Below are positions 1,817 through 62,690 of a DNA stretch of 64,000 nucleotides, piece by piece. This stretch comes from Escherichia phage YX22. Within the stretch, counting starts at the first letter, position 1. Each line of letters opens with the position of its first letter. Location: sequence record OR776998; one strand, given 5' to 3'. The notes under the pieces are model-generated. The model ran no database searches. It was not told the DNA's origin and saw nothing but the letters and a program-made list of their open reading frames with translations. Both the position numbers and the translations under genes were made by a program.

Positions 1817-1841
1817 ACAAAATCTCCCAAGGATTATGGGG

Positions 1842-1848
1842 TATTTAG
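1842..1848 (-). promoter_or_regulatory. late-promoter-like core CTAAATAcccc
   Basis: The minus strand reads CTAAATACCCC about 25 nt upstream of the uvsW ATG. It belongs to an 11-member motif family. Confidence 0.45.
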
Positions 1849-5010: not shown

Positions 5011-5038
5011 AAGAAAATACCCCCATGGATGATGGGGG

Positions 5039-5045
5039 TATTTAG
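5039..5045 (-). promoter_or_regulatory. late-promoter-like core CTAAATAccccc
   Basis: The minus strand reads CTAAATACCCCCA. It forms an 11-bp inverted repeat with 5015-5025, next to the start codon. Confidence 0.55.
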
Positions 5046-5683: not shown

Positions 5684-5688
5684 AGAAC

Positions 5689-6033
5689 TCACAGCGCCCC
5701 AAGATTGCCGATTACGTACAGGGAGCACAGAGGAGTGCCTGACGAACGCGGTTCGATCGTCATCCCGCTCAGGCGGATCAGTTCCAGTAAGCCGTCAGTG
5801 GTCTGATACGCGCGTGTCGAACCGTTCGGTCGATATAGCTCCAGCTCAGTTCGCCCTTCCTTTATTGCATTTCGAATGCGAGTGAACACGCTGTGGTCGC
5901 CGAACTTCTGTTTCAGAAGATCCAGCTTGGTGACCAGGCGGCGCGTTTTGCGTGGCTTGCGCTCACTCGGCTTTTCGAATTTGACGATGTGGGGGATCTC
6001 CACGGATTTGTTCAGTTTGGTGTCTGCTGCCAT
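5689..6033 (-). CDS. hypothetical protein
   Basis: 114-aa ORF with an AGAGGA SD. Confidence 0.6.
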   Translation of the reverse strand: MAADTKLNKSVEIPHIVKFEKPSERKPRKTRRLVTKLDLLKQKFGDHSVFTRIRNAIKEGRTELELYRPNGSTRAYQTTDGLLELIRLSGMTIEPRSSGTPLCSLYVIGNLGAL

Positions 6034-7195: not shown

Positions 7196-7221
7196 ATAAT
7201 ACCTCTCACCCCGTTATTGAA
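7196..7221 (-). promoter_or_regulatory. TTCAAT-N14-TATTAT promoter-like element
   Basis: The minus strand reads TTCAATAACGGGGTGAGAGGTATTAT and points at the 7166 start. Confidence 0.5.
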
Positions 7222-7456: not shown

Positions 7457-7482
7457 ATGATACCTTTCGCCCCGTTATTGAA
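7457..7482 (-). promoter_or_regulatory. TTCAAT-N14-TATCAT promoter-like element
   Basis: The minus strand reads TTCAATAACGGGGCGAAAGGTATCAT upstream of the 7427 start. Confidence 0.5.
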
Positions 7483-8963: not shown

Positions 8964-8988
8964 AATTATTCTCCTCCATATGGTATCT

Positions 8989-9014
8989 AGTATAACCTGT
9001 TCGATAATATGAAC
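8989..9014 (-). promoter_or_regulatory. variant promoter-like element GTTCAT-N14-TATACT
   Basis: Sits between the capsid terminator and the endonuclease start. Confidence 0.3.
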
Positions 9015-9042
9015 AAATAAAAACCCCGCCGAAGCGGGGTTT
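9014..9042 (-). terminator. rho-independent terminator after the capsid gene
   Basis: AAACCCCGC-cgaa-GCGGGGTTT, followed on the minus strand by TTTTATTT. Confidence 0.7.
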
Positions 9043-9067
9043 GTCAGGGTTAAGGACAACTATTCGA

Positions 9068-11360: not shown

Positions 11361-11367
11361 TATTTAG
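11361..11367 (-). promoter_or_regulatory. late-promoter-like core CTAAATAct
   Basis: 28 nt upstream of the scaffold ATG. Confidence 0.5.
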
Positions 11368-14894: not shown

Positions 14895-15608
14895 TTACAC
14901 AATTCTAATTAGCTGCCAACCCGTCGTGTTCAAACGCTCTGCGGTCGCAGTTTTCCTATGATACACAGACGGTGGTGGAACTGGAATACCCTTGTCGATG
15001 TAATCATAGAGTGCTGAATATTTAAGTCCCAACCTCTCCACATATTCACGACAGTTCCCGTGGATTTCGTGTTCTTCACCGGAAGGAGATACCAATTTGA
15101 ATCGCTTTGCATGACCGTTGTTCTTGCCCTTTCTGATTCCAGTTTCAATGCATTTTCGACTAAATGATAATTTACCTTCTTCTTTCCATTCAACCCCGAT
15201 CCGACAGCTAATGATTTCTCCTGTTTTCCACCGTGGATCATCGCAATCAACTAAACCGAGATGTTCACCAGTAGAAGTCAAAACTGCTCCGTGTTTATTG
15301 GAAAATGTGGACCCGTCTCCACCCCAGGTCTTGTTGTACCCTTTCTGAGTTGACATGTGGGTTCCGTGTTGCTTTATAAGAATGATTTCCAATTCTTTTA
15401 GATCTTCCAGGGATTTGGTCTGGGCTAACACTTGAACAGAAAAGGACTCTTCTCCGTACTTTCTTATTGCTTGGTGAATAAAGTAATCAGATCCCTTCTG
15501 AGCACTATTGCAGTGCTCCCACCACCTTTGCATAGGGTCTCTCGTCGTTATCCCAATATAGGCTTTCTGATTTACTAGATTTGTAATTTTGTAAACACTT
15601 CCGATCAT
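14895..15608 (-). CDS. GIY-YIG homing endonuclease (Seg-like)
   Basis: VYKITNLVNQKAYIGIT..R..EH motif. A+T-rich insert between the sheath and tube genes, with its own promoter-like element. Confidence 0.8.
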   Translation of the reverse strand: MIGSVYKITNLVNQKAYIGITTRDPMQRWWEHCNSAQKGSDYFIHQAIRKYGEESFSVQVLAQTKSLEDLKELEIILIKQHGTHMSTQKGYNKTWGGDGSTFSNKHGAVLTSTGEHLGLVDCDDPRWKTGEIISCRIGVEWKEEGKLSFSRKCIETGIRKGKNNGHAKRFKLVSPSGEEHEIHGNCREYVERLGLKYSALYDYIDKGIPVPPPSVYHRKTATAERLNTTGWQLIRIV

Positions 15609-15636
15609 TTCGATGCTCTCTCAGTAAAATCGTTCC

Positions 15637-15662
15637 ATTTTAACCCGCGAGAGACCATTGAA
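15637..15662 (-). promoter_or_regulatory. TTCAAT-N14-TAAAAT promoter-like element
   Basis: The minus strand reads TTCAATGGTCTCTCGCGGGTTAAAAT upstream of the endonuclease gene. Confidence 0.5.
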
Positions 15663-17628: not shown

Positions 17629-17635
17629 TATTTAG
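17629..17635 (-). promoter_or_regulatory. late-promoter-like core CTAAATAtc
   Basis: 43 nt upstream of the sheath ATG. Confidence 0.5.
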
Positions 17636-21888: not shown

Positions 21889-21911
21889 ATCGATACCCTC
21901 AATTTTGAAGG

Positions 21912-21918
21912 TATTTAG
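21912..21918 (-). promoter_or_regulatory. late-promoter-like core CTAAATAcc
   Basis: 24 nt upstream of the 21888 ATG. Confidence 0.5.
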
Positions 21919-28422: not shown

Positions 28423-28429
28423 TATTTAG
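28423..28429 (-). promoter_or_regulatory. late-promoter-like core CTAAATAtc
   Basis: 35 nt upstream of the 28388 ATG. Confidence 0.5.
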
Positions 28430-28689: not shown

Positions 28690-30603
28690 TTACATAACAA
28701 CTGCGGCAGATATGTATCCTGAATCTTGATACGATCCAGAAAGGTCAAAAACTTCTAAGTTAAAAGAGTCAGGGGATGTACTTACGGCATTAATTACTAA
28801 TTTCCCTCCGCTAGTGGTATTGCCAACACTGCATAAAACAGCATAAGCAGAGGAGGGCATAGTATTAGATAGGTTGACGGTATATTTACCGGTCCCGGTT
28901 TTAGTTACAGTTGCTCCATCCGCATACACTAACGACCCCGAAATTCCATTAAAATTGATCATTGCCCGTGTACATGCACTCGACCTTTTTGCGACGGTAG
29001 ACCCAATAAATGCGTATTCTTGGGCCTTGTTAATATAAATCTTATTAACAGAAGTGTCAGGTACTTGTAAGACGTTGTCTATAACAACATTACAGGCTGT
29101 TGCTCCAGATACGGTAGAGCATCTATCTATCTCATAATTGTCGATATTAATAGCCCTTACAAAACCTATACCCCCAAATGCTGACCAGTTTTGTTTAACA
29201 AGAACACCGGAAATACCGGACAGGAAAATAAGATCGCCTGTCGTATCTTTGCTAAACGTGTTGTTGGTTATTGAAACAGAAGAAGAACGCGGTGAGTGAC
29301 TATCATCTGCAACATATACCCTGGCTAAAGAAGAAGCAGTATTCTCTTCAAAGTAGTTACCATCTACCAGTAACTGCTGTGCACCCCCGGCGACAACACC
29401 TACGTCATAGCCCGTGTTTGCTTCAAATAGAGAGTCTCTGACTATGAAATTTCGTACACTACTTGCAGTACCTGAGTCTCCGATAAGAACACCGTTAACA
29501 CCATCAAAGAAAGTACAATTATCAACTTTAACTACGTTGATATCTACCTTTGACGTTTTTACACCATTTGCACATTTAGCGAAATAGCATGAAGTTAGTT
29601 CAGCTACTCCGGAAAAATAGTCTGGGCTATCGTAATGTAAATAGACCCCATATCGAGCGTTTCTGACAACGCAATCTTGAAGTTTTAAATACCAAGCCCC
29701 ACCGAAATCAAAGCCATCAGATGATGAATCCTGGATATCCAGAAAAAGTCCAGAAATCTTAGCTCCTATCGCACCACCTTGAACCCGAATGGCGGGTGAC
29801 GCTAACCCGGTAAACTTAATTACTGAACCTGTTGTTTGGTCATTAACATGTCCAAAACTATTACCAACAATACATAGACTATCAGTGGCAGTTATGATTA
29901 AAGTAGAGCTTATAAGATAAATACCATCCGGTATGTATAAACTCTTTTTCGAATCTATTGCTGCCTGAAACGCGGCGGTATCATCGGTCACACCGTCGCC
30001 AACAGCCCCGAAGTCCTTGACTGACACCAGGTCTTTATTTTTATCATATAGTGTTCGCTTAATGGAGTTGGCCAGAGGTGACTTAAATCCGACCAGACCA
30101 GCGCCATCATCAGATGCAAGATTGATTCTCAAGGCTGCATCACCAACACTAACCCATTTGCCTAACCCAGTACCACCAGCACTTTCAGGAGTTGAGCCAG
30201 AAGAAACGGTTTTAGGTAACTCGCCATCCCAGCGATACTTACCTGTTGTATGGGTAAGCAATTCATTTTTAACATTAAGTGTAGCACCAGTGTCAAACGA
30301 CCCAGGCAATGTAACGTATTCTTCACGGGATACGGCTAATTCCCCAAGATCTATGGAACCAGCTGAATGTACAAGTACAGCATTAGTACCAAGACTTACA
30401 GCAGTAGTTCCTGCCGGAAGTACAGGTAATGAGTAAGCTCGTTGAGTAGTCTTATCGTAAATGACCTTGTAACCACCTAAGTCTACACCTACAGCAAAGT
30501 AGACTACTTCATTCTGCTTAACACCAAACTTACGGGCAATGGCTTGCTTATTGGTAAGAATACCAGTGGAGCCTTTACCACCTTGGGAGAACATCTCGTT
30601 CAT
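28690..30603 (-). CDS. tailspike, pectate-lyase-type beta-helix depolymerase
   Basis: Shared N-terminal module, then DFGAVGDGVTDDTAAFQAAIDS, the typical start of a pectate_lyase_3 tailspike. A+T-rich. Confidence 0.75.
   Translation of the reverse strand: MNEMFSQGGKGSTGILTNKQAIARKFGVKQNEVVYFAVGVDLGGYKVIYDKTTQRAYSLPVLPAGTTAVSLGTNAVLVHSAGSIDLGELAVSREEYVTLPGSFDTGATLNVKNELLTHTTGKYRWDGELPKTVSSGSTPESAGGTGLGKWVSVGDAALRINLASDDGAGLVGFKSPLANSIKRTLYDKNKDLVSVKDFGAVGDGVTDDTAAFQAAIDSKKSLYIPDGIYLISSTLIITATDSLCIVGNSFGHVNDQTTGSVIKFTGLASPAIRVQGGAIGAKISGLFLDIQDSSSDGFDFGGAWYLKLQDCVVRNARYGVYLHYDSPDYFSGVAELTSCYFAKCANGVKTSKVDINVVKVDNCTFFDGVNGVLIGDSGTASSVRNFIVRDSLFEANTGYDVGVVAGGAQQLLVDGNYFEENTASSLARVYVADDSHSPRSSSVSITNNTFSKDTTGDLIFLSGISGVLVKQNWSAFGGIGFVRAINIDNYEIDRCSTVSGATACNVVIDNVLQVPDTSVNKIYINKAQEYAFIGSTVAKRSSACTRAMINFNGISGSLVYADGATVTKTGTGKYTVNLSNTMPSSAYAVLCSVGNTTSGGKLVINAVSTSPDSFNLEVFDLSGSYQDSGYISAAVVM
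30124..30603. repeat. ~480-bp shared RBP N-module, copy 1
   Basis: Encodes ..YKVIYDKTTQRAYSLP..VSREEYVTLPGSFDTGATLNVKNELLTH..KYRWDGELPKTV... Also similar at DNA level to the other copies. Confidence 0.8.
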
Positions 30604-30660: not shown

Positions 30661-33324
30661 TTAGCTTAATGGTTTTACTTCCCATCGCTTGTCATAGTAA
30701 TGTGCAAAACCACAGTAGGATACAGACAGATGAACGATTGCATTTACTAGGCTTGCTGTAGGTAATGCAATTCTGACAAATGTTTTACCGTCACGTACCA
30801 GTTTAGTTACTGTTACCCCGGAAAGAGATTTATCACCAGCAATCATATTAGACCAGACTGCACCAGAGGCTACATTTTCCTGTGTGCTACCGGATAGCCC
30901 AAACAGAATACTGCCCCCTGATTCAGTACCAGCCAAACCATTTTTGTTAACTGGAATGATATCTGCACGCCCAGCAACGAAGCAACCATCTGGGATTTTA
31001 GTCTCTTCCCCTACAGCACAGAGAAATATATCCAAAGCCCTGTTCCATGGAACCAGTACAGTAGCTTCCTTGTGGTCAACACTCCGGAAGAACGAACTGC
31101 TATTAGAGTGAATTGCCGACAAAGTAGTGCCTGTATATGAGTTACGACCCTGTACAATATCTTCTCCATATACCCTGCCCCGGTAAAGGTTACCACGGTT
31201 ATATGTAGATATTGTGTAGGAACCATCGCTAACTTTTAAAAATTCAAAATTACTATTTAATGTAACACTACGCCCAATATACTGGTTACTTGGAGAAGTG
31301 GTATTCTCCATCAATTTGATAGCATAGTCAGAGTTAACGTAACCACTGTCAAAGATAATCCTACCAGCCTGGTACTCATTAGTAGGTAACTCAATAAAAT
31401 GAGTTACACCAGTATTCATTTTAGACTGAATCCAACAAGAAACATCTCTGAATACGATTGTTGTTTGTGCAGCAGGGGAAGCTAACTGTGAGAAGTCTAA
31501 TGCCACTGGCCCATTTATCCCTTCAATACCGAAGCCAGAGAATGAGAGGCTACGAATATCTCCATAAAATTTATGAGGTAAAATGCAACCATCTGCTGCA
31601 ATGTTGCTAGTAGCAACATACATGACAGGCAATCCATTACTGACTGGCTCATATGTAGTACGGTTAATGGCAGCTCCCCATAAAAAACCAATGTCACAAT
31701 GGTGTGCCCAAATAGATGACATATCCGTACTAGTGCTTCCATTGATACCAAAACCATAGGTACAGTCATATGCATACAAATTGGTCATAACACTAACAAA
31801 GCAAGCCATAGGCAAAGCGAACTTATAGTGGTAAAAGTCCACATCATGCACATTAAATGTCTTACCGCCACCACCTATGCCATTGCTTAAATCGAATGAA
31901 CTAATAACAAGAGGACTACCTACGTAATCAGAATCAGCATTTCGGAAAGAGAGGCGACCAATAGTAATATTGTGTCCCCATCTGGTAGAGATGAATCCAC
32001 CCTTACCTGATGTATAAATAATACTTTGTCTCTGACCAAGACCCGTAATGGATAGAGATCTGCCAGTCCAACGCTGATTGCTAATATCAATCTGTGTATC
32101 ACCAATATACATTGGTTGGGTAATTTTGATATTCAACCCATTAGCTACAGCATATGAATAGGTTGCTAACAAAGCATCCCCATCATTGTGCACACCAGTC
32201 AGGTCAGCAGCCCCCATACTTGGTGCTTTAGGATACGGACCGCCCTGAATGGTGCTGCCGTCGATATATGGGGCGTCCATCCACGCACCAAACATAGATG
32301 GGGTAACTTCGGTGCTACCACGTAAATCACGTACCCAACGTTTGCCGGATGCAGTAACAATAGTCATACCATTATCATCTGCTGATGTAACAGATGGTTT
32401 ATATACAAAATACCCGCCACCTAAATCACCGGCATTGGTTGCAATCATACCGTCAGTATGGGCTTCTACGTAAATACGTTGTTCAGCATAGGTAGGCTCA
32501 ATTGTTCGCAGTACTGCAATATTGGGGCATGTACCAATCAGCTTACTACCATCAGGCTTGCTCAGGTCTTCTCTGAGACTAGCACCAGAATTTGGGACTT
32601 CCATCAAATCTACGGTAATGTTACCTGGACTGTAGGTTAACTGACCATTAGACACAGAACTAATATAGACATTGGTCGGTAATGAAGGCAGGCCATAAAT
32701 TTTCTGAGCAGCTGCATCGAAGATAACTTTCTTGTTATCGAGTACTTGAGATGTATCCGTATTAAGAATTACCTCAGAATCTTTTACATTAGCTGAACGA
32801 GCGATTTCTTGAATACTTCGGTCAAACAACGGACTGATATTCGGTTGTTTAACAGACATTTCAGCGACTACCCAAACGCCTGCAGTCAGCGCAGTTTGTA
32901 AAGACACTTTCCCTGTCGTGCTGTCATAGGAATATTCAATTTCTGGTGTTTTGTACTCACCACCGATATAAAGAGATTGGACTCCATAAGATGTGTAATC
33001 AGGAGTGAACTCGGTTTCACCTCCTATAGCCTGAAACTTATAGATTCGAATCCCGGTTTTATAATCTTCTGGAGACAGAATCTTATCAAACAGACAGAAC
33101 ACAACGTCACCTTTGGATAATGCACACCCGAGATTCAACGTATTTCCATCGATTTCAAAGTTGTCTAACGGAACTTGCATACCACCGTTGATTGTGACTA
33201 TACCCGTGACAGGGTAGAAAGGGAGGGAGATAAACTTCTCTCCGCCCGTTGCTGTGTAAGTGTATGGAATCTGGTGCGGAGCTGTTACGACCGCTCCAAA
33301 GATGCTCTCGACGTTTCTGGTCAT
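30661..33324 (-). CDS. tailspike/receptor-binding protein with N-terminal docking domains
   Basis: 887 aa from the ATG at 33324 (MTRNVESIF). Ig-like N-terminal repeats, a weak copy of the shared module, and a large C-terminal domain. A+T-rich. Confidence 0.6.
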   Translation of the reverse strand: MTRNVESIFGAVVTAPHQIPYTYTATGGEKFISLPFYPVTGIVTINGGMQVPLDNFEIDGNTLNLGCALSKGDVVFCLFDKILSPEDYKTGIRIYKFQAIGGETEFTPDYTSYGVQSLYIGGEYKTPEIEYSYDSTTGKVSLQTALTAGVWVVAEMSVKQPNISPLFDRSIQEIARSANVKDSEVILNTDTSQVLDNKKVIFDAAAQKIYGLPSLPTNVYISSVSNGQLTYSPGNITVDLMEVPNSGASLREDLSKPDGSKLIGTCPNIAVLRTIEPTYAEQRIYVEAHTDGMIATNAGDLGGGYFVYKPSVTSADDNGMTIVTASGKRWVRDLRGSTEVTPSMFGAWMDAPYIDGSTIQGGPYPKAPSMGAADLTGVHNDGDALLATYSYAVANGLNIKITQPMYIGDTQIDISNQRWTGRSLSITGLGQRQSIIYTSGKGGFISTRWGHNITIGRLSFRNADSDYVGSPLVISSFDLSNGIGGGGKTFNVHDVDFYHYKFALPMACFVSVMTNLYAYDCTYGFGINGSTSTDMSSIWAHHCDIGFLWGAAINRTTYEPVSNGLPVMYVATSNIAADGCILPHKFYGDIRSLSFSGFGIEGINGPVALDFSQLASPAAQTTIVFRDVSCWIQSKMNTGVTHFIELPTNEYQAGRIIFDSGYVNSDYAIKLMENTTSPSNQYIGRSVTLNSNFEFLKVSDGSYTISTYNRGNLYRGRVYGEDIVQGRNSYTGTTLSAIHSNSSSFFRSVDHKEATVLVPWNRALDIFLCAVGEETKIPDGCFVAGRADIIPVNKNGLAGTESGGSILFGLSGSTQENVASGAVWSNMIAGDKSLSGVTVTKLVRDGKTFVRIALPTASLVNAIVHLSVSYCGFAHYYDKRWEVKPLS

Positions 33325-33330
33325 TTGAAG

Positions 33331-33404
33331 ATACCCCATAGAGGATTTGCCAATATGGGGTATTTAGTCTGAACTAATAAATTTATGAACAAAGGTATAA
33401 CAAG
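33331..33404. repeat. ~74-bp promoter/leader repeat, copy A
   Basis: Matches 36708-36780 with a 1-nt indel. It includes the late motif and the first 20 nt of the small plus-strand ORF. Confidence 0.8.
33361..33367 (-). promoter_or_regulatory. late-promoter-like core CTAAATAcccc
   Basis: Forms a 10-bp inverted repeat (33331-40 with 33354-63) that spans the promoter and the RBS. Confidence 0.55.
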
Positions 33405-33624
33405 GAGAACCAATGGAACTACAATAGTAGGTTCAGATGCCAGTACCAAAGTTCAGGGTGTAGATATAGCCAACAGGGATAACGTTTTAGCTACTTACAC
33501 ACTAGGTTCAGCAGACCCTTTCATGGTGGATGGTATACAGTTAGGTATGTTCAACATATCAGGTCAGACTATTACCTTAACTGCTGTATCAGTAAGGGTA
33601 ATGCAAACAGTAAACTCTATATAA
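33385..33624 (+). CDS. small conserved protein antisense to the tailspike operon
   Basis: 79 aa. Against the partial copy at 28522-28626, 7 codons differ and 6 of those are synonymous third-position changes in this frame. Confidence 0.6.
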   Translation: MNKGITRRTNGTTIVGSDASTKVQGVDIANRDNVLATYTLGSADPFMVDGIQLGMFNISGQTITLTAVSVRVMQTVNSI

Positions 33625-33648: not shown

Positions 33649-33676
33649 TAACCCCGCCGAAGCGGGGTTTTGTTTA
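33643..33676. terminator. bidirectional terminator
   Basis: AACCCCGC-cgaa-GCGGGGTT with A- and T-tracts on either side. Confidence 0.7.
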
Positions 33677-36600
33677 TTACTTCTGTTCAAGAGCAGAAAG
33701 TCTGGCTTCGATTCTTTCCAGTTTTCTTCGCTGATAAGCAGCTTCAGCAAAGAAAATTCCGTCAGGCCGCACGCCCCACTCCTCACCCTCTTCGTGAATA
33801 ACCACCTCAGTGAATACAGGCTCTTCCGTGGTGGTGACATTACCCTCCTCGTCAGTGTGTTCAACGATTTCATTGTGCGAAAATACCATATCGGTCATCC
33901 GTGGATACTTGTCATAGCACAGAACGGCATAACGACAATCCGTACTGTTTTCGTCCATCAGACCATGTGCAATGAATACATCACGAATTTGCTGAGCAAT
34001 AACCCCGAAGTGAATACGAGCTTCATTGCCTTTCAGTTGAACAGCATCTAACCACTGGTACATGATGTAGTGAACGTCACCCCAGGCATCCAGGAAAGCA
34101 TCATCAAAAACTACCGGCTCCGTTTTCTTCTCTCCGTTAGAAGTAACAATAGGGTTGCTTCCGAGGTATGCAGTGGTGAAACGGTTGCTGGGCCCACCAA
34201 GAGCAATAGCGTTATCGTTATAAGGCTTAACATCAGCAGTCTGGAACAGGTGCTCAGCTCCGTTGTAAACTATCCTGCGAGAAGCTGTGTTATTCGCACC
34301 GTAAAGCGTAATCTGTGCACCAGTAGAAGAACTGGTTCCTTCTCCACCGCAAAATATGGTGCGCTGTCCTGCTGGGTTATTAGTAGGTACAGATTTCCCA
34401 ATAAACCCATACTCGCCTTCCAGTAGCATTTCAGAGCGAATGTTATTACTGGTGCTGGCCCTAAGGGTCACATGACCTAAACCCAAATCTCCTGTAAATT
34501 CCATTGGCGCAGGGACAGTGCGAACCCCATTCGTATCAAAAAACACGGGAACAGCTCTGTCAGGTACAGCACCATATCTGAAATCCCTGGAAACACGATT
34601 GTCTGGGCCAATCTTCATTTTGTAGCAATACAAATCTGAGGGATGACCATCTGATTTGAATGGGTCTTTCGCTGAGTTATCTCCATATGTCCAGGGGTTC
34701 AGATGGTCTTCCCCACCGAACATGTAATAGATATAACTATCCTTAACAACCACTGAGCCAACACCGACTCCAGAGTTGACAATACCGCCCTGATAAATCT
34801 GGTCAGTGATATTCACCCACTGAGTATTATCCAGGTTCCAGGTGTCTAGGTTCACTCGCGTGTAGAACGTTCGTGGATAAGAAGTAAAGTATCGTTGATC
34901 AGGTACATTGGCTTCCCATTCGTTATCAGCACGCTCTGTGGCGAAAATGATTAGTTCATTACCGACTTTAGCGAACGGCAACGTAGAGTGGTGAACATTA
35001 TTAGGAAATCTGAGTGATTCCCAAGTCATGCCCAAATCATGACTACGATGCAACGAACTCCCCAAACGATCTGAACGAGTACCACGAGTTAAGACATAAA
35101 GAACGCCATCAAAATATTTAACGCAAGGCTCTGCCGCATCAGGTTCATAATCAGCAGGAATACGACGTTTTTGGTATAAACCCGGGTTATTAAACGCATC
35201 CGGGAAATACAACATGCCAACTTCACGAGGAGCAACATCACCTTGGTGATACCCCATCATGAATGAATCATTATTGATGGCGGTAAAACTATGAACTTCA
35301 GTCACCATTGGGATTAACCCAAGGCTGGTTTTACGCCACGGCGACTCATGGAACGATGTACCCATATGCCAACGGCTGGTAGAATTATTTTGGTCAAACG
35401 CCTGTTGATTTGGCGTGGTAACTGTGAAAGTGTTGCGGTCAATAACTGAAGTTACAGTCATATTCCCTGAAACTCCAGTCACCCCAGAGTTTGAGAAGTT
35501 AACAAAATCCCCAGCAAAAAGACCGTGTTCAGGGATAGTAATTACAGCCACAGGCTGGTTGGCGGCTTTAGTGATACCGCCTGTCGGATGGTAGTTACGG
35601 GACATGGGGCGATCCCACAACTCACAGGTTACCAGTGCGTTAGATGCCAATGTACGGGTCTCAATCATCGCAAAGAGACGATTACGCATCACCCCCATAC
35701 TCATGCAGTGGTAGTTAACTGTCGGATAGTCAGGATGTAGGTCGGTTAACCACTCCGGGGTTGTCCAGGTCTGTCCGTCATCCCCTGAACGAACCCAGGA
35801 TACATGCAGCCTGCTAACCCCATGTCTATCACTAGCCATGAACGGACAGTAAATAACATCGTCGTAAACGAACGCTTTATCTTGTGGCCACGCATTGTAA
35901 TAAGGGGTGTCCGTTATTTTGAACAGCTCGCCCTGAACAAATTCTTCAGAGGCATAATAAAGCGGCTGACCAGGAATACGCTCATAAACAAAACGAGTGT
36001 TGACGAATCGACTAATGTCAGGCAAGGATGTGACCTTATATGTCTTCCCATTGCCATTAATTTTCTGACCAACTGGTGCGGCGTTTAATACGCCATTAAG
36101 CGCTGAGGTGTCATCGGTGACCCCATCACCTTTTGCATTCCACCCGCGCGGGTCGAATGTGTCTCTCCATCTTGCGATCTGCAAATCTGGATATTTTGTT
36201 GCGCCATCAGGGTCAGAAAGCTGGCTTCTTAATGAAGCATCACCAACACTAACCCATGCACCAGTTCCAGTGCCACCAGTACTCCCAGGAGTTGAACCAG
36301 CTGGAACTGTTTTAGGGAATTCACCCTCCCAACGATACTTACCCGCTACATGAGTAAGGAGTTCATTTTTAACATTAAGTGTAGCACCAGTATCAAACGA
36401 CCCAGGTAAAGTCACATATTCTTCGCGACTTACGGCTAACTCCCCAAGGTCTACAGAACCAGCCGAATGAGCGAGGATTGCCTGTTCGTTCAGACTAACA
36501 GCAGTCGTTCCTGAAACAATACCTGAAGGAAGAGAATAAGCCCGTTGGGTAGACTCATCATAAATTACTTTAAATCCACTGAGATCAATACCAGCAGTGA

Positions 36601-36703
36601 AATAAACGACTTCGTCTTCTTTGACACCGAAATTTCGAGCGATAGATTGTTTGTTAACTTCTATGGAAGTGGAGCCGCGTGGTTGATTGAATTGAGAAAT
36701 CAT
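33677..36703 (-). CDS. endosialidase tailspike (endo-N-acylneuraminidase) with C-terminal intramolecular chaperone
   Basis: Long stretches match K1F endoNF as I remember it: HGVSRLHVSW..SGDDGQTW, GTRSDRLGSSLHRS, YLGSNPIVTSNGEKKTEPVVFDDAFLDAWGDVHYIMYQWLDAVQLKG, ..RKLERIEARLSALEQK. Confidence 0.9.
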   Translation of the reverse strand: MISQFNQPRGSTSIEVNKQSIARNFGVKEDEVVYFTAGIDLSGFKVIYDESTQRAYSLPSGIVSGTTAVSLNEQAILAHSAGSVDLGELAVSREEYVTLPGSFDTGATLNVKNELLTHVAGKYRWEGEFPKTVPAGSTPGSTGGTGTGAWVSVGDASLRSQLSDPDGATKYPDLQIARWRDTFDPRGWNAKGDGVTDDTSALNGVLNAAPVGQKINGNGKTYKVTSLPDISRFVNTRFVYERIPGQPLYYASEEFVQGELFKITDTPYYNAWPQDKAFVYDDVIYCPFMASDRHGVSRLHVSWVRSGDDGQTWTTPEWLTDLHPDYPTVNYHCMSMGVMRNRLFAMIETRTLASNALVTCELWDRPMSRNYHPTGGITKAANQPVAVITIPEHGLFAGDFVNFSNSGVTGVSGNMTVTSVIDRNTFTVTTPNQQAFDQNNSTSRWHMGTSFHESPWRKTSLGLIPMVTEVHSFTAINNDSFMMGYHQGDVAPREVGMLYFPDAFNNPGLYQKRRIPADYEPDAAEPCVKYFDGVLYVLTRGTRSDRLGSSLHRSHDLGMTWESLRFPNNVHHSTLPFAKVGNELIIFATERADNEWEANVPDQRYFTSYPRTFYTRVNLDTWNLDNTQWVNITDQIYQGGIVNSGVGVGSVVVKDSYIYYMFGGEDHLNPWTYGDNSAKDPFKSDGHPSDLYCYKMKIGPDNRVSRDFRYGAVPDRAVPVFFDTNGVRTVPAPMEFTGDLGLGHVTLRASTSNNIRSEMLLEGEYGFIGKSVPTNNPAGQRTIFCGGEGTSSSTGAQITLYGANNTASRRIVYNGAEHLFQTADVKPYNDNAIALGGPSNRFTTAYLGSNPIVTSNGEKKTEPVVFDDAFLDAWGDVHYIMYQWLDAVQLKGNEARIHFGVIAQQIRDVFIAHGLMDENSTDCRYAVLCYDKYPRMTDMVFSHNEIVEHTDEEGNVTTTEEPVFTEVVIHEEGEEWGVRPDGIFFAEAAYQRRKLERIEARLSALEQK
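36224..36703. repeat. shared RBP N-module, copy 2
   Basis: Same module as 30124-30603. Confidence 0.8.
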
Positions 36704-36707
36704 GATA

Positions 36708-36780
36708 ATACCCCATAAAGGATGACCAATATGGGGTATTTAGGCTGAACTAATAAATTTATGAACAAAGGTATAACAAG
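36708..36780. repeat. promoter/leader repeat, copy B
   Basis: Matches 33331-33404. Only the first 20 nt of the small plus-strand ORF survive here. Confidence 0.8.
36737..36743 (-). promoter_or_regulatory. late-promoter-like core CTAAATAcccc
   Basis: Forms an 11-bp inverted repeat (36707-17 with 36730-40). Confidence 0.55.
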
Positions 36781-36801
36781 AACCCTGCCGAAGAGGGGGT
36801 T
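36781..36801 (-). terminator. degenerate stem-loop after the 993-aa gene
   Basis: AACCC...GGGTT, at the position where the other cassettes have terminators. Confidence 0.35.
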
Positions 36802-36805
36802 AGTT

Positions 36806-39787
36806 TTACGGGTAAGCACTCTCGAACTTACAGAACCAAGTCGTTCCTCCATCAGTTGTTGACAACCTAAAAACTTGTGTTCCAGCTGCTGTCAAAGATG
36901 GGGTACTACTTGCTAATATAACATTTGCACCAAATGTTATTGTTTTAGATGTTGTTGAATAGACAGCCAAAAGAACCTCAACATAACCAATTAGTGTATT
37001 TGTTAATACTGCTGGAGTTATTGTTACATCTCCTGTAACTGTAGCTGCGATGTAAGATGCGTCTGAAAAGTCAGGCGCATAACTTGCTGTTGGCGTCTCG
37101 AACTTTGGATTTCTTACCAATACAGGAACTCCAACATTTTTCCTGAAAATTGTACTATTGCAAACCATATCATACTCTATACCAACAAAATTCTTAGCTG
37201 CGAGTATGTTAGTAAATGTCTGGTCCGCAGAGTAAATATGAGTTATCAGCCTTGCCACCCATGCTGGTGAGTTTGAGTTTTCACACTCAATGAATGAGCA
37301 GTTGGTACTACCAACAGCGAATGGCATTAATGATGCCGTATATGAAGATAGCCCTGCGTCATTGAATGCATTCATATTCACAAAAGTCTGGCATTGAGAG
37401 AACGTATTACCGGTGGCTCCACCATCAATAAAAAAGCCAATCCCGCCGTTAATATAACCATCTACAGGATCTAAATTAGCTTTCGTGTAGTCCCATTTTG
37501 ATGGAGAATCTGCAAAACATTGATTGAAGGAATTGTTTATTGAGTTCTGTACAACAAAGCAGCATTTCATCCTTGAGTTCTGGTCAGTGACTGTATCGTC
37601 ATACATGCCCCAGTTGTGCACCTTACCAATTCTGTTATTACCACCACCACGAACCCAGGTACCAAATCGGAAATAACGACCTTCACCCATGCTAACCTGA
37701 TGATCGCTACCTTCAACAATGTGGGCTGTGCTGAGCGGATTAGTTGGTTTTAATACACCAACAGCATAAAACTTCAATAGGTGCACACCCATACCGCCAG
37801 CAATATGGATGCCATGACCATCAACGTTGGCTACGTAAATGCCTTCTAACTTGTTAGCATAGCCATCGGATATCTTAAACCCATTAACAGTTTTTGCACG
37901 GGCATCAATTAATAAGTTGCTGATATGCCCAGCGTATTGATTACCCGTCCCTTTATCGCATTTAACAGCATAGCCAGAGGAGTCTGCAACGAAGTCATCG
38001 GTGAGGTACACCCCACCGAAACCAGCATCAATGCTAACATCTCCGTGAATGTGTAGTGTCGTACTGATAGGATATTTCTTCCCATTCAGCCTGATAACTT
38101 TGCTTACAGTGTTAGGTTGTAGCCAGTCAGGATGGTTAGCAGCACTACTTGGTGCATGTTCTAAACCTGTTAAAGCTGCCGCAGCATCAATCGCATCCTG
38201 TAATGATGGATACATATCCGGGTTGACATTTATAATTTTCTTAAGCGCATTGCCAACAGTACCAGTTTCGTAATCAATTGACTTATCAAAACCTGAAAAA
38301 CCTGCTCCTGTAGGTTTAGCCAATTCTGACTTCAATGAAGCATCACCAACACTAATCCATGCGCCAACACCAACGCCGCCTGTTGTCATAAGAGTTGAGC
38401 CAGGAGCAACGGTTTTAGGAAGTGTACCATCCCAACGATACTTTCCATCAGTATGGGTGAGTAATTCATTTTTAACATTGATGACAGCACCAGAATCAAA
38501 TGTCCCAGACAATGTAACATATTCTTCACGAGATACAGCCAATTCCCCGAGATCTACAGAACCCGCTGAATGCACAAGTACAGCGGAAGAACTAAGACTG
38601 ACAGCAGTAGTACCAGGGACAATATCAGCAGGCAAGGGATAAGCCCTTTGCGTCTCCTTGTCATAAATAACTTTATACCCACTTAACGCAGCACCAACAC
38701 TAAAATAAACGACCTCTGTATCTTTAACATTGGTTACACGAGCAACTTCCCGCAAAGTATAATCAATTTGATTATAGATGTTTGGTGTTCCATTGATAAT
38801 TACAACAACTTCATCCTCTGGTTCCAGTTCTTGCGCAAGAGTGATTTTACTGGTTAATGGATCGAATGTGAATCCCAGATTTTTATACTGGCGACTTCCG
38901 TTTATATCAATGGCCGGAACATCATCAACAACGACGTCCAACGTGATTTCGGTTTCACCGCCAATCGCTGAACCCCCATTATAGACCCAGGTAATCGTAG
39001 AAGAACTAGAACCACCGCCATTACCCAATTGAATAGGAGTATATTCAATCACCTGAAGTTCTGTGTTGGCTGGCAAAGAAGGGCTGAAAGTGATTACATT
39101 CCCATCTAGTGAATATTTGGATTCCGCAAGACGTTTTCCGTCAGCATACACGTCCACGATTGTTGGTGGGGTATTGAGAGCGACAGTACTTGTTTCAGAC
39201 GCCAAAATTTTTGTAAAGATTTCACGACTGTAGACGCGACCTTGGCCAAGACCGACGCCGGATGTAATAATCCAACCTTGTTCAGGTCCAGACCAAGTGA
39301 ACGTTGCTGATACGTTATCAGTTGTTATAGCCATGTCTTCAGTGGAGCCATACAAATTATTTCCAGAAGGAGACACAGTCAATGGGTAAGTGGCAAATTT
39401 CCCATAAGCATCACAAATAGTAACGGAATCCCCAATACGCGTAGGGGAAGGGAGAACCACTGTAGATGCCCCTGTGGTATTATTAATGAGATAGCCTCGC
39501 CCTTCAGTGAGCGTTGCCGTAGAGGCATGCGGAAGGACTTCCCAGCGGATACCACCGCCACCCAGCGGCAACCATCCACCATTTTCATAGAAGCCCTCAA
39601 ATTCGTCGGAGTCGGCATTGTAGCGAACGGAAGACGGGAGTCCTGCGCTGGCATTACCCTCGGGTAAAGTCAGGACAGCATCTGGTCCATGCTCAATCGT
39701 ACCCGTGTTGAGGAGACCAGCCAAAGTAGACTGCTCTTCAGCCGCCAGACCGAGAGGGAAAACAGGCTGTGTTGGTTTATTAGCCAT
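36806..39787 (-). CDS. tailspike/branching receptor-binding protein
   Basis: 993 aa from the ATG at 39787 (MANKPTQP). Fibre-type N-terminus (VRYNADSDEFEGFYENGGW), Ig-like repeats, an internal copy of the shared module, and a C-terminal enzyme-like domain. Confidence 0.7.
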   Translation of the reverse strand: MANKPTQPVFPLGLAAEEQSTLAGLLNTGTIEHGPDAVLTLPEGNASAGLPSSVRYNADSDEFEGFYENGGWLPLGGGGIRWEVLPHASTATLTEGRGYLINNTTGASTVVLPSPTRIGDSVTICDAYGKFATYPLTVSPSGNNLYGSTEDMAITTDNVSATFTWSGPEQGWIITSGVGLGQGRVYSREIFTKILASETSTVALNTPPTIVDVYADGKRLAESKYSLDGNVITFSPSLPANTELQVIEYTPIQLGNGGGSSSSTITWVYNGGSAIGGETEITLDVVVDDVPAIDINGSRQYKNLGFTFDPLTSKITLAQELEPEDEVVVIINGTPNIYNQIDYTLREVARVTNVKDTEVVYFSVGAALSGYKVIYDKETQRAYPLPADIVPGTTAVSLSSSAVLVHSAGSVDLGELAVSREEYVTLSGTFDSGAVINVKNELLTHTDGKYRWDGTLPKTVAPGSTLMTTGGVGVGAWISVGDASLKSELAKPTGAGFSGFDKSIDYETGTVGNALKKIINVNPDMYPSLQDAIDAAAALTGLEHAPSSAANHPDWLQPNTVSKVIRLNGKKYPISTTLHIHGDVSIDAGFGGVYLTDDFVADSSGYAVKCDKGTGNQYAGHISNLLIDARAKTVNGFKISDGYANKLEGIYVANVDGHGIHIAGGMGVHLLKFYAVGVLKPTNPLSTAHIVEGSDHQVSMGEGRYFRFGTWVRGGGNNRIGKVHNWGMYDDTVTDQNSRMKCCFVVQNSINNSFNQCFADSPSKWDYTKANLDPVDGYINGGIGFFIDGGATGNTFSQCQTFVNMNAFNDAGLSSYTASLMPFAVGSTNCSFIECENSNSPAWVARLITHIYSADQTFTNILAAKNFVGIEYDMVCNSTIFRKNVGVPVLVRNPKFETPTASYAPDFSDASYIAATVTGDVTITPAVLTNTLIGYVEVLLAVYSTTSKTITFGANVILASSTPSLTAAGTQVFRLSTTDGGTTWFCKFESAYP
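38327..38755. repeat. shared RBP module, copy 3 (internal)
   Basis: Residues ~355-497 of the ORF: ..YKVIYDKETQRAYPLP..VSREEYVTLSGTFDSGAVINVKNELLTH..KYRWDGTLPKTV.. Confidence 0.8.
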
Positions 39788-39824
39788 TTCAAATACCCCT
39801 AAATGTGTTCGTTTCATCTAGGGG

Positions 39825-39831
39825 TATTTAG
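39825..39831 (-). promoter_or_regulatory. late-promoter-like core CTAAATAcccc
   Basis: Forms an 11-bp perfect inverted repeat (39791-801 with 39819-29). Confidence 0.55.
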
Positions 39832-43649: not shown

Positions 43650-43688
43650 GATAATCTCCATCACCTGAGTTTGAATATGGTGTTGAAG

Positions 43689-43695
43689 ATATTTA
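43689..43695 (-). promoter_or_regulatory. late-promoter-like core CTAAATAtc
   Basis: 40 nt upstream of the 43649 ATG. Confidence 0.5.
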
Positions 43696-43708
43696 GCCAA
43701 CGGGAATC

Positions 43709-45079: not shown

Positions 45080-45765
45080 GACAACATTATGAGTCTTCGT
45101 AGAGGGTTCATAATGTTGCGTCAAAGGGCAACACAGGCTCCTGTTGGTAGAATTAACTTGATTCATAGTTCCTGCTGATCTTCCCGGATTCGAAGGAGCA
45201 CCAACAGGCGAGGCCGGATGCGTAAGTTCCGGCAAAACGATGGTGGCACCCTCGCCAACAAAATAAAAGGTTTTATCAATAACGGGTTACAAAGTATAGT
45301 TAACCCACTGAACGGCAAGCTGTTTGAGTCCTGGTCACTCATAGCGTTGTGAACTAAGACAGGTACGTTTAGGACTCAAACAGGTTTTCGTTGTGCGTGA
45401 CTTTGCGGGTTTTTAGAAACTGACCAAGCAAATAAATGCTAATGATTCCGAAGTTCTGATGGCGGCGTAATAGCCTATAAGTCAGCGGGGTATTCCAGTT
45501 CCCTGTAACAGAATCTGGCGCATCGCGGCCCTGAGATGTGATTAATAAGTCAGGGCATACAATGACAATTCATTCACATGATAACTTGTCAGCAATCTGT
45601 GAAATTGTTTGTAGGCATACGAACAAGAGGTAATTCGAGGGAGAATCGGCTCCTACCGTGTAACAGACCAAGTGACGTACCACTAAACCGTCCCGGGCGG
45701 TCGAAATGTGGGGAGATGAGAGTGGTCCCCTGAAGTTATCAGTTGAATGAATTGTTAAATAAAAT

Positions 45766-48259: not shown

Positions 48260-48283
48260 GCCGAGATTCTCCTTTTCTATATT

Positions 48284-48319
48284 CCTGTAGATACGCTATG
48301 ATAAGCCAATGTCTACAGG
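48284..48319 (+). promoter_or_regulatory. hairpin overlapping the SD of the PLP-enzyme gene
   Basis: CCTGTAGA/TCTACAGG (8 bp). The 3' arm runs into the AGGAG SD, 10 nt before the ATG. Confidence 0.35.
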
Positions 48320-48328
48320 AGAAATAGA

Positions 48329-49522
48329 ATGAACAAGACCATCTTCGATATCCTTTCCCTCGACCGCAACCTGGTCCATTGGGAAGATTATCTCTACAAG
48401 CACACCCCGTGCGAACTTGTCGTCAACCCAGAAACCAACCAGCAGGTCTGGTTCAAGCGTGAAGATTATTTTGCGCCGCTGTCTAACTATGCCAACGCCA
48501 AGCAGGGCATCAATGGCAGCAAACTCCGCCAGGCCATCTGGTTGATGGTTGAGCACCTCAAGGCCGGAGGCTCCCCTGACATCATCCATGGTACTGTCGT
48601 TGGTAGTCCGCAGTCCCCTATGGCGACGGCAGTCTCTCGGCACTTCGGCGGCAAGACAACCACTGTACTCGGAGCGACCAAACCCACCACCTGTATGAAC
48701 CACGACATGGTGGCAATGTCAGCCTGGTTTGGTAGTGAGTTCAACTTCGTCGGCTCGGGTTACAACAGCACGATCCAGCCGCGCTGTAAGAAGTTGATCG
48801 AACAACAGAATCCAAAGGCGTATTATCTGGAATATGGTATCACCCTCGACCATACAGCGCATTCTCCTGAGCGCATCGCTGGCTTCCATATGCTGGGTGG
48901 CGAGCAGGTTGCCAACATCCCTGACCATATTACCGATCTGATTATCCCAGCCGGATCGTGCAACTCTTGCACAAGTATCCTGACCGGGCTGGCAATGCAT
49001 CCGAAGCCTAATCTGAAGCGTGTGTATCTGATTGGCATCGGTCCGAACCGCCTGGACTTTATCGAGAGCCGTCTGCGCATCATCGGCAAACATGCCAATC
49101 TGCCGCACATTGTCGACTTCACCCGTCGCTATCACGACAACCCAGACTATGTACACGGCAAGAAGGAGCTTCAGCATGCCTCTAAGAGCGTTTCGCTGGC
49201 TGGCCTCCTGAGTGGTATCAGACATAAGGAAGAGCCAGAGGTCGTGCTTCCTCGCTTTGAGGTACACCATTGGGATCTTCATACCACTAATTGGGTTCGT
49301 TACAATGACCTGATGGAATATCAGTGGGGTGATATTGAGTTGCACCCTCGCTATGAAGGCAAGGTCATGACCTGGATCCAGCAGAACAAGCCAGAGGTGC
49401 TCAATGAGAACACTCTGTTCTGGATTGTGGGTAGCAAGCCATACATCGATCCGATGAAGGCAGCATGCCCTGAGCTGGCTATCCCTGAAACAGTTCCTGT
49501 AAACGAATTCACCCCTTCCTGA
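48329..49522 (+). CDS. PLP-dependent enzyme, ACC deaminase / D-cysteine desulfhydrase family (fold type II)
   Basis: FKREDY...NGSKLRQ (PLP lysine), IPAGSCNSCTSILTG (phosphate loop) and HPRYEGKVM, compared with the family motifs KRED..GGNKxRKL, GSxxG and DPVYEGK. Confidence 0.7.
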   Translation: MNKTIFDILSLDRNLVHWEDYLYKHTPCELVVNPETNQQVWFKREDYFAPLSNYANAKQGINGSKLRQAIWLMVEHLKAGGSPDIIHGTVVGSPQSPMATAVSRHFGGKTTTVLGATKPTTCMNHDMVAMSAWFGSEFNFVGSGYNSTIQPRCKKLIEQQNPKAYYLEYGITLDHTAHSPERIAGFHMLGGEQVANIPDHITDLIIPAGSCNSCTSILTGLAMHPKPNLKRVYLIGIGPNRLDFIESRLRIIGKHANLPHIVDFTRRYHDNPDYVHGKKELQHASKSVSLAGLLSGIRHKEEPEVVLPRFEVHHWDLHTTNWVRYNDLMEYQWGDIELHPRYEGKVMTWIQQNKPEVLNENTLFWIVGSKPYIDPMKAACPELAIPETVPVNEFTPS

Positions 49523-49617
49523 CCCTCCTGAACACCCCATACAATCCGTGTGGGGTATCTATGAAAACCTTCCTCCAATATTTCCGAGAGGCGTCCTGTA
49601 CAAACCAGACCTGGCAC

Positions 49618-49624
49618 CTAAATA
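49618..49624 (+). promoter_or_regulatory. late-promoter-like core CTAAATAccccc (plus strand)
   Basis: 34 nt upstream of the 49658 ATG. It is the only plus-strand member. Confidence 0.5.
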
Positions 49625-49657
49625 CCCCCATATGGCTAACCCACTGAGGAACCCAAC

Positions 49658-50116
49658 ATGCCAACCTCCAAATTGTTTGAATCAGAATACACCAATGACA
49701 TCCCTGTATGGACTGGTGTTCAAGACGGTATCACGATTGAGCTGTTTGATCGTGAAGAGACAGGCGCGGAAGAGATCTATGCAGGCGTTGAAGGCACTGA
49801 TGTTGTCCGCGCCGCCGTAGCACTTGCCACCTTCCTGGAAGATGCACCGATTGATGGCGTGCCGTTCGAGGCGCACGTAGATCCTAAGGATCCGACCTCT
49901 ATCATCATTACAGTGAATGGGGTGCCATACACTTCGTACAGCATCGAGACGGACGAAGAGGGCAGCGGAGCGCTGTATATTGCCACCGACCTGCAGCTGG
50001 AAGACGATGAGATGGATTATCTGATTCAGAACGGGGTGCTGCCACCGTTTACCGATGAAGAACTGGACACGGAACTGGCTGCTGTCGGGGACGACGAAGA
50101 CTTCTGGGAAGAATAA
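49658..50116 (+). CDS. acidic hypothetical protein
   Basis: 152-aa ORF with a GAGGA SD. Confidence 0.6.
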   Translation: MPTSKLFESEYTNDIPVWTGVQDGITIELFDREETGAEEIYAGVEGTDVVRAAVALATFLEDAPIDGVPFEAHVDPKDPTSIIITVNGVPYTSYSIETDEEGSGALYIATDLQLEDDEMDYLIQNGVLPPFTDEELDTELAAVGDDEDFWEE

Positions 50117-55050: not shown

Positions 55051-55076
55051 TTCAATAAACCAAAGGGGGATATAAT
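55051..55076 (+). promoter_or_regulatory. TTCAAT-N14-TATAAT promoter-like element
   Basis: TTCAATAAACCAAAGGGGGATATAAT directly after the polymerase stop. Confidence 0.55.
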
Positions 55077-55112
55077 TCCCCCTGTTAACCCTTTGACAAA
55101 CAGGTGATTGAA

Positions 55113-60159: not shown

Positions 60160-60185
60160 TTCAATAAAGGGGAATGGGTTATTAT
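60160..60185 (+). promoter_or_regulatory. TTCAAT-N14-TATTAT promoter-like element
   Basis: The -10 element sits in the loop of the terminator hairpin. Confidence 0.4.
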
Positions 60186-60207
60186 TAGCCCGTTCCCCTT
60201 TCTTTTT
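60169..60207 (+). terminator. rho-independent terminator
   Basis: GGGGAATGGG/CCCGTTCCCC (10 bp, one G.U) followed by TTTCTTTTT. Confidence 0.7.
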
Positions 60208-62648: not shown

Positions 62649-62674
62649 TTCAATAAAAGGGGATAGGGTATTAT
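62649..62674 (+). promoter_or_regulatory. TTCAAT-N14-TATTAT promoter-like element
   Basis: TTCAATAAAAGGGGATAGGGTATTAT. Confidence 0.4.
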
Positions 62675-62690
62675 TGCTCTATCCCCTTTT
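62659..62690 (+). terminator. rho-independent terminator
   Basis: GGGGATAG...CTATCCCC followed by TTTT. Confidence 0.6.

Follow-up and report, generated by a model that had tools for sequence, protein, structure and literature searches.

The gene for the first of four consecutive tailspikes in a stretch of 64,000 nucleotides (nt) of Escherichia phage YX22 (OR776998; the whole stretch is called the window here) is preceded by the heptamer CTAAATA, which overlaps one arm of an inverted repeat whose other arm contains the Shine-Dalgarno (SD) sequence of the gene. The question raised by this locus was why a promoter-like box and a ribosome-binding site (RBS) should be complementary to each other. 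An RNA leader hairpin and a symmetric protein-binding site had been offered as possible answers in an earlier reading of the sequence (the original prediction). Our analysis indicated that the inverted repeat behaves as an RNA hairpin on the coding strand and not as a protein site. We consider it probable that the element works as a translational gate of the kind described for gene e of phage T4, a reading built on the motif, the hairpin, its conservation and covariation, the position of the SD and the contrast in folding between full and shortened leaders, and in which promoter activity, the start site and the translational effect were inferred.

The CTAAATA box resembles T4-type late promoters

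The window belongs to Agtrevirus, a genus of the Ackermannviridae, and is ViI-like. The 3 kb around the first tailspike leader were 98% identical to Escherichia phage vB_EcoM-RPN242, Escherichia phage LHE287 and Salmonella phage vB_CECAV_050, and about 87% identical to Kuttervirus phages such as Det7. Phage vB_CECAV_050 is classified as Ackermannviridae, Aglimvirinae, Agtrevirus, and was collinear with the window. The records OL656110 and PQ306799 are likewise 98%-identical relatives.

Thirteen exact copies of CTAAATA were found in the window against 5.2 ± 2.3 expected, and none of 100 dinucleotide-preserving shuffles reached this number. With at most one mismatch, the longer form CTAAATACCCC occurred eight times (six exact), where 0.55 copies were expected. 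Two copies of the heptamer (21872 and 51005) were located inside genes. The remaining 11 stood 5′ of plausible start codons with a box-to-ATG gap of 23-42 nt, ten on the minus strand and one on the plus strand (49618), as the original prediction had described; its statement that CCCC usually follows was slightly generous, as CCCC came directly after the box in six of the 11. The base preceding the box was A in seven copies, C in three and G in one. Each box was followed by 4-5 pyrimidines, and every copy had an A within positions 5-7 downstream, where the start would be expected. The genes behind the boxes mostly encoded virion proteins (a gp6-like wedge, three tailspikes, a VrlC-like giant protein, a gp14-like neck protein, the sheath and a head gene), together with a uvsW-like helicase, a 242-residue protein of unknown role and a 152-residue protein.

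The description of the motif as late-promoter-like was borne out by the literature and by the relatives. The genome paper on phage EspM4VN listed TTCAAT[N14]TATAAT and CTAAATAcCcc as two unique regulatory motifs of these phages (PMC7283392), and this published motif of the Ackermannviridae (“Viunalikevirus”) has the same sequence, in the same family, as that of the window. The late box of T4, TATAAATA, is an 8-bp element at -13 to -6, in the place of a -10 element, with no -35 element and about one helical turn from the start, as reviewed by Geiduschek and Kassavetis (PMC2988020). The form (a/c/g)CTAAATA agreed with it at seven of eight positions, and Aeromonas phage Aeh1, with a/gC at -13/-12, uses (a/g)CTAAATA (PMC2988020), the same variant as in the window. 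The gp55- and gp33-like factors to which the original prediction had pointed were both present among the proteins of PQ306799: a homologue of gp55 (phrog_234, 3e-52; the PHROG family of the late sigma factor) and one of gp33 (phrog_254, 3e-20; the family of the late-promoter co-activator). A DNA polymerase processivity factor or sliding clamp, the equivalent of gp45, was annotated in the relative just upstream of the span of the window. Homologues of gp55, gp33 and gp45 had been noted in the ViI-like phage CBA120 in 2011, when the late promoter sequence was still unidentified (PMC3184105), and the same set was reported for ViI-like phages in PMC3121705. By analogy with T4, the identity of CTAAATA as the box of gp55-dependent late promoters is well supported but unproven.

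The box is coupled to hairpins that cover the Shine-Dalgarno sequence

At five loci, the box formed part of an inverted repeat of 9-15 bp, measured arm by arm, in agreement with the number of loci given before: the first, second and third tailspike genes, the gp14-like neck gene and the gene of the 242-residue protein, which starts at 5010 (the 5010 gene; Table 1). The AAATA of the box formed the base of the 5′ arm. The 3′ arm contained the SD, GGGG or GAGGG, 7-9 nt ahead of the ATG, so the claim that the downstream arm supplies a G-rich SD held at every locus. In the first tailspike leader, the pairing between 39791-39805 and 39815-39829 was perfect over 11 bp and extended to 15 bp with one G.T. 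Both strands of the window were scanned for stems of at least 9 bp ending 2-10 nt before the ATG of an open reading frame (ORF) of at least 60 amino acids. The scan returned 13 hairpins, of which five had CTAAATA in the 5′ arm and only one other (+48329) was judged to stand at a real gene start; the coupling of box and hairpin is therefore specific and far beyond chance. At gathering thresholds, an Rfam scan of the window found two tRNAs and no other known RNA family.

The true start codons were located at 39787, 36703, 33324 (not 33339), 5010 (not 5052) and 21888. PHROG profiles aligned from residue 1 at 39787, 36703, 33324 and 5010, and the N-terminus MANKP of the first tailspike was kept across four genera, while the Miltonvirus protein begins MST. 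In-frame upstream ATGs were present at 39817 in the hairpin loop, at 33339 in the 3′ arm and at 5052 upstream of the promoter box. In PQ306799, such upstream ATGs serve as the annotated starts of the first tailspike and the 5010 gene. For these two genes the upstream starts are probably wrong, judged by sequence comparison, because the PHROG alignments begin at the downstream ATGs and because the interval from one ATG of the 5010 gene to the other differs among relatives by indels of 1 nt.

The inverted repeat behaves as an RNA hairpin

Folding analysis showed that four full leaders were far more stable than expected, at -21.0 (z -8.6), -19.6 (second tailspike, z -4.2), -17.2 (5010 gene, z -3.4) and -11.2 kcal/mol (gp14-like gene, z -3.0). 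When the leaders were cut at the predicted +1, the energies were -0.9 to -5.7 kcal/mol with z near 0. The mean probability of the SD being unpaired was 0.00-0.20 in the full leaders and 0.26-0.53 in the cut ones; for the first tailspike, it rose from 0.00 to 0.43 when the full leader was replaced by the predicted late transcript. A leader hairpin had been suggested for the case that transcription starts upstream of the motif. The hairpin itself was found, and it is expected on read-through transcripts, not on RNA from that promoter.

The sequences of the stems and loops changed among relatives in a manner that kept the pairing. The first-tailspike leaders of Agtrevirus, Kuttervirus, Limestonevirus, Taipeivirus and Miltonvirus all kept the stem, with changes in the sequence and length of the loop. 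The twelfth pair was G.U, G-C or A-U depending on the genus, and further in, the Miltonvirus stem was changed on both sides (CTAATG/CATTAG versus CTAGAT/ATTTAG). The IMG/VR database was scanned with the pattern CTAAATACCCC-N6-30-GGGGTAT-N3-9-ATG, which fixes the outer stem only. It gave 59 loci with 39 distinct sequences and loops of 3-16 nt, and in the majority the unconstrained inner positions paired. The inner stems were of more than ten kinds, including TAGATG/CATTTA, ATA/TAT, CAT/ATG, TAG/CTA, TAATG/CATTA, AATGA/TCATT, ATAC/GTAT, GTA/TAC, TGTGT/ACACA and TAGGA/TCTTA. Over all CTAAATA sites in the sequences compared, many of them chosen by the hairpin pattern itself, the stem lengths were bimodal, with a background mode of 3-7 bp and another of 10-15 bp. 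A formal covariation count on a nine-sequence alignment of the first-tailspike leader found no pair with changes on both sides, and the covariation evidence therefore rests on manual comparison arm by arm; in this alignment, the outer 10 pairs were almost invariant and the inner pairs were misaligned by loop indels. At the gene of the 152-residue protein (orf152), a hairpin was absent in Agtrevirus and Taipeivirus and present in Miltonvirus, and a Limestonevirus paralogue had one; hairpins were thus gained or lost at the same gene in different genera.

These results bear on whether the repeat acts in the DNA. A symmetric site for a dimeric regulator, or a DNA cruciform, would fit arms that are perfectly palindromic at the DNA level, and we regard this as very improbable. 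The arms were separated by 4, 5, 9, 12 and 13 nt in the window and by 3-18 nt across the relatives, and a dimeric DNA-binding protein is unlikely because such a range of spacing would not be tolerated. The inner stems varied among the loci and remained complementary, and the 3′ arm kept its place relative to the start codon, not to the promoter. The isolated non-Watson-Crick positions favoured the sense RNA strand, with eight G.T and two A.C when read on the coding strand, a bias of the kind that an RNA structure would produce. The protein-site option of the original prediction was therefore not supported, since the half-site spacing was variable and the inner stems covaried. It is the thermodynamics, the variable spacing, the covariation between copies and the orthologous first-tailspike leaders that point to an RNA hairpin.

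It is barely credible that the repeat has no function and merely reflects recent duplication of the tailspike leaders or an accidental match of the C-rich promoter flank to a G-rich SD. About 65 nt are indeed common to the leaders of the second and third tailspikes, and CCCC facing GGGG yields 4 bp at no cost. Only these two leaders, however, were copies of each other, and duplication, which the original prediction had itself named as a possible origin, fails as an explanation because the gp14-like and 5010 genes also had hairpins, each with a different inner stem. These two copies and that of the first tailspike were independent, and their inner stems and loops differed. The chance of a 10-mer meeting its complement within 30 nt is about 3e-5 per site. 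The comparative data also contradict this explanation, since the structure was kept in five genera and the tailspike leader was recognisable in 266 phage records. The readings as a protein site and as chance are effectively excluded by the spacing and covariation data. Conservation in five genera together with covariation suggests that the structure is under selection.

Comparison with T4 gene e and a proposed gate

The original prediction stated that a coupling of this kind was not something known from T4. This was wrong. Late promoters within RBS-sequestering hairpins have been documented for T4 e, soc, 49, I-TevI/II/III and segB and for Aeh1 mobE (PMC3014915, PMC2988022), and the structure of gene e cuts lysozyme synthesis 100-fold (PMC3014915, PMC2988022), with the mapped late 5′ ends of gene e falling inside the structure (PMC3014915). 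We folded the gene e leader, ttTATAAATAccttcTATAAATActtaGGAGGtattATG, and obtained -14.9 kcal/mol (z about -5) with AAATACCTTC paired to GGAGGTATT; the arms of the stem are TATAAATAccttc...GGAGGtattATG. In both systems, a late box (TATAAATA or CTAAATA) contributes AAATA and a C/T-rich run as the 5′ arm, the 3′ arm consists of the SD and TATT(T) just before the AUG, and late transcripts should lack the 5′ arm. The gp14-like leader, with CTAAATACCTTC as its 5′ arm, even shares the arm sequence AAATACCTTC with gene e. The two systems differ in that the SD is GGGG in the window and GGAG in T4, and in that the stems of the window are longer, up to 15 bp and -21 kcal/mol. The gated genes of T4 lie in early or middle units, where the gate delays expression, whereas three of the five gated genes of the window are tailspikes in a late cluster, for which the mechanism is predicted from the sequence.

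We propose the following mechanism. CTAAATA would be the -10-like box of gp55-dependent late promoters and occupy -12 to -6, and RNA polymerase would start about 6 nt past the box, at the A after the pyrimidine run (about 39819 for the first tailspike, by analogy with T4). AAATA and CCCCxx would pair with xxGGGGTATTT, which holds the SD 7-9 nt from the AUG. RNA entering from upstream, either early or middle read-through or long polycistronic late transcripts, would carry both arms, which would pair in a hairpin (-11 to -21 kcal/mol) and enclose the SD, and the gene would remain untranslated; partial termination of transcription at the hairpin may also occur in some copies. RNA from the gene's own late promoter would lack the 5′ arm (in the first tailspike, only its last nucleotides would remain), leaving the SD free for translation. 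Only RNA entering from upstream could hide the RBS, and synthesis of each gated protein would depend on its own late promoter alone.

If late transcription instead started at or upstream of the box, the hairpin would be a 5′-terminal stem-loop of the late mRNA, acting as a stabiliser or as an operator opened by a phage factor. In its favour, T4 late promoters have an AT-rich melting region where the box is followed by CCCC here, and a RegA-like translation repressor was annotated in the relative. We nevertheless judge this arrangement quite unlikely. Hairpin-free CTAAATA sites stood at the same distance from the start codon before structural genes, like a -10-type box; abundant virion proteins could hardly be made from an mRNA whose SD is locked in a stem of -17 to -21 kcal/mol; and gene e of T4, with an identical layout, has late 5′ ends mapped within the structure.

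A further explanation, unlikely in our view, is that the hairpin is mainly an intrinsic terminator or insulator for upstream transcripts, from which the nested late promoter escapes, and that the hiding of the SD is secondary. A promoter nested in an intrinsic terminator behaves likewise, in that the hairpin forms in RNA arriving from upstream and is missing from RNA that begins at the nested promoter. The stems had a GC-rich core followed by TATTT, the copy of the 5010 gene continued with TATTTTCTT, and in several metagenomic copies the hairpin had a tetraloop and the ATG was preceded by 7-8 T. Terminator-like hairpins also enclosed early-type promoters of the window, for example at 60160-60204 and 62649-62690. 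The T-tract after the tailspike stem was not conserved, however, reading TATTTGAA in Agtrevirus, TATTACAA in Kuttervirus and TATCAAAA in Miltonvirus. A terminator scan called none of the five copies, whose tails contained 3-6 U in 8 nt, and a separate bona fide terminator (33650-33669) was already present before the third tailspike promoter. Unlike terminator-promoter modules, the late modules of the window thus had a weak and variable T-tract, and the constant content of their 3′ arm was the SD, 7-9 nt from the AUG. A terminator role is plausible for some copies, where it may supplement the gate without taking its place.

Several points weigh against a T4-type gate. The searchable literature yielded no 5′ ends, mapped transcripts or expression data from any phage of the Ackermannviridae, and promoter activity and the position of +1 rest on the T4 analogy. 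In T4 late promoters, AT-rich DNA follows the box (PMC2988020), and CCCC takes its place here. About half of the CTAAATA promoters had no hairpin, which implied that the hairpin is not needed for promoter function. The excess of G.T over A.C came from few independent events, about six against two without related copies. The tailspike genes lie within the late structural cluster, where read-through would be mostly late RNA, and the temporal rationale of the T4 gate, early versus late, is not obvious there. Concerning the CCCC, five to six of the seven CCCC-bearing copies of the box in a complete relative genome were hairpin arms, and the “cCcc” part of the published consensus may therefore reflect the hairpin rather than recognition of the promoter. 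No mention that most CCCC-bearing copies of the consensus are hairpin arms was found in the searched literature.

The module CTAAATACCCC...GGGGTAT...ATG was also observed before homing-endonuclease genes at seven loci on IMG/VR contigs, which are not Ackermannviridae isolates. The encoded proteins were SegE-type GIY-YIG (6e-38, 4e-34) and NUMOD3 endonucleases, and the context is again that of T4. At two further loci, the same module preceded a family-B DNA polymerase gene.

Genomic context of the gated genes

The 5010 gene is in the classical, T4-like context for a gate. Two early-type promoters (TTCAAT-N14-TATNAT, one mismatch each) were located upstream on the same minus strand at 7196-7221 and 7457-7482, and in the interval from these to the gene one weak terminator-like candidate was called, at 6825-6804 (-), and no strong one. 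Like uvsW of T4, which is a late gene, the uvsW-like helicase gene follows replication and recombination genes, a context similar to the classical one, and its hairpin is degenerate. RNA entering the tailspike genes would be mainly late polycistronic RNA from the gp6-like promoter at 43690, or leakage from the minus-strand region of small genes beyond 44 kb. Because the upstream units there are late genes, the gate would insulate dosage at the tailspikes rather than set timing.

Other candidate explanations were rejected. Translational coupling to the upstream cistron did not serve as a general explanation because the distances from the upstream stop codon to the arm were inconsistent across loci: 3-12 nt for the first tailspike and the 5010 gene, 65 nt for the second and 337 nt for the third tailspike; the cistron upstream of the gp14-like gene is on the other strand. 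Sigma-70-like promoters feeding the tailspike cluster were fewer than in shuffles (23 candidates versus 32.7). A divergent promoter on the opposite strand was dismissed since the 3′ arm, taken as its reverse complement, gives TCAAATA in place of CTAAATA.

A block of about 65 nt, composed of cttgttatacctttgttcataaatttattagttcag, the box and the 5′ arm, was duplicated between the second and third tailspike leaders (36718-36790 and 33341-33405, minus strand). The terminator upstream of the third tailspike was strong, and a degenerate copy of it was present at about 36780-36802, upstream of the second. The duplicated leader block and the terminator together look like the boundary of a repeated cassette. 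The fourth tailspike gene had neither box nor hairpin.

Table 1. Coordinates of the tailspike genes and of the CTAAATA boxes with their leaders in the window.
Feature	Position	Strand	Description
Four consecutive tailspike genes	36806-39787, 33677-36703, 30661-33324, 28690-30603	-	PHROG profiles for all four
First tailspike, box CTAAATA	39825-39831	-	T4 geometry aligns the box with -12 to -6
First tailspike, hairpin 5′ arm AAATACCCCTAGATG	39815-39829	-	Overlaps the box and the stretch to the predicted start
First tailspike, hairpin 3′ arm CATTTAGGGGTATTT	39791-39805	-	Contains the SD AGGGG (39796-39800)
First tailspike, start codon	39785-39787	-	phrog_7992 aligned from residue 1
Second tailspike leader	36707-36743	-	Box 36737-36743; arms 36730-36740 / 36707-36717; ATG 36703; 11 bp perfect
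Third tailspike leader	33331-33367	-	Box 33361-33367; arms 33354-33363 / 33331-33340; ATG 33324; 10 bp perfect
gp14-like neck (head closure) leader	21893-21918	-	Box 21912-21918; arms 21906-21914 / 21893-21901; ATG 21888; 9 bp including one G.T (G.U in RNA)
242-residue “GTP-binding domain” gene (4282-5010) leader	5015-5045	-	Box 5039-5045; arms 5032-5043 / 5015-5026; ATG 5010; 12 bp perfect
uvsW-like helicase leader	1816-1848	-	Box 1842-1848; degenerate hairpin, 4+3 bp around an internal loop
gp6-like baseplate wedge leader	43650-43696	-	Box 43690-43696; imperfect 12-position pairing ATCTTCAACACC / GGTGATGGAGAT over the SD GGAG
Box before head gene	11361-11367	-	No SD-occluding hairpin (internal comparison)
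Box before tail sheath gene	17629-17635	-	No hairpin (internal comparison)
Box before 1614-residue VrlC-like gene	28423-28429	-	Weak structure only
Box CTAAATACCCCC before orf152 (49658-50116)	49618-49628	+	No hairpin; the Miltonvirus orthologue has one of 12-13 bp

Early-type promoters and other observations in the window

The early-type promoter TTCAAT-N14-TATAAT occurred 17 times with at most two mismatches, where 5.6 copies were expected. Five of these sites were nested in hairpins, at 60160-60204, 62649-62690, 55051-55085 and 45275-45300 on the plus strand and at 7196-7221 on the minus strand. In these hairpins, a G-rich spacer paired with a C-run just past the -10 element, which was placed in the loop. 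At 60160 and 62649, the stem was long and perfect and led into a T-run, in the manner of a terminator that encloses a promoter.

The gene of a 397-residue protein at 48329 was preceded by a 12-bp hairpin, TTCCTGTAGATA / TGTCTACAGGAG (48282-48331, plus strand), with no CTAAATA. The SD AGGAG was in its 3′ arm and a TATGAT hexamer in its loop, and it may represent the same gating trick on a different class of promoter. A decayed module was found at 49527-49650 on the plus strand, in which the box was mutated to CTGAACA, the hairpin CACCCCATAC / GTGTGGGGTA was kept and a 29-codon ORF remnant followed. It appears to be a pseudogenised paralogue of orf152; such a paralogue was intact and hairpin-gated in Limestonevirus (locus L021, minus strand near 9360).

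The 242-residue protein matched PHROG 289, “GTP-binding domain”, over the C-terminal half of the profile only (positions 259-500 of 500). In the relative, a separate upstream gene, corresponding to about 5261-5728 (-) of the window, was also annotated as a GTP-binding domain. The gene may have been split, with the distal half under its own late promoter. Homing-endonuclease genes were located among the late structural genes, at 14895-15662 (-) between the sheath and tube genes and at 7491-9059 (-) after the major head gene, and the former had an early-type promoter-like site at 15637-15662.

Implications for the Ackermannviridae

The motif was already known in the Ackermannviridae and the mechanism in T4-like phages; their use at tailspike, neck and other late genes of the Ackermannviridae appears, from the sequence, to be the new part. 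No description of a hairpin, a complementary arm or SD sequestration at such genes was found in the searched literature, and a review of the family did not mention promoters. What goes beyond sequence, structure and conservation is inference.

It is possible, although doubtful, that the Ackermannviridae use a general grammar of a promoter inside a hairpin, covering both early and late classes, in which the tailspikes are insulated cassettes and “cCcc” is a hairpin arm. The hairpins would then silence or terminate anything arriving from upstream, and if this were true, receptor-binding genes could be swapped without disturbing dosage.

For annotation, the results concern the choice of start codons, as the first tailspike and the 5010 gene appear to be misannotated in PQ306799. 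Tailspike swapping in Kuttervirus and Agtrevirus is an active field, and the module is relevant to design. A tailspike gene inserted or exchanged without the module of box, hairpin and SD, or placed behind a foreign promoter that reads through the hairpin, is predicted to be poorly translated. The gate of T4 gene e would extend beyond the Straboviridae and beyond genes embedded in early units, and one may ask why late structural genes should have to be shielded from late read-through.

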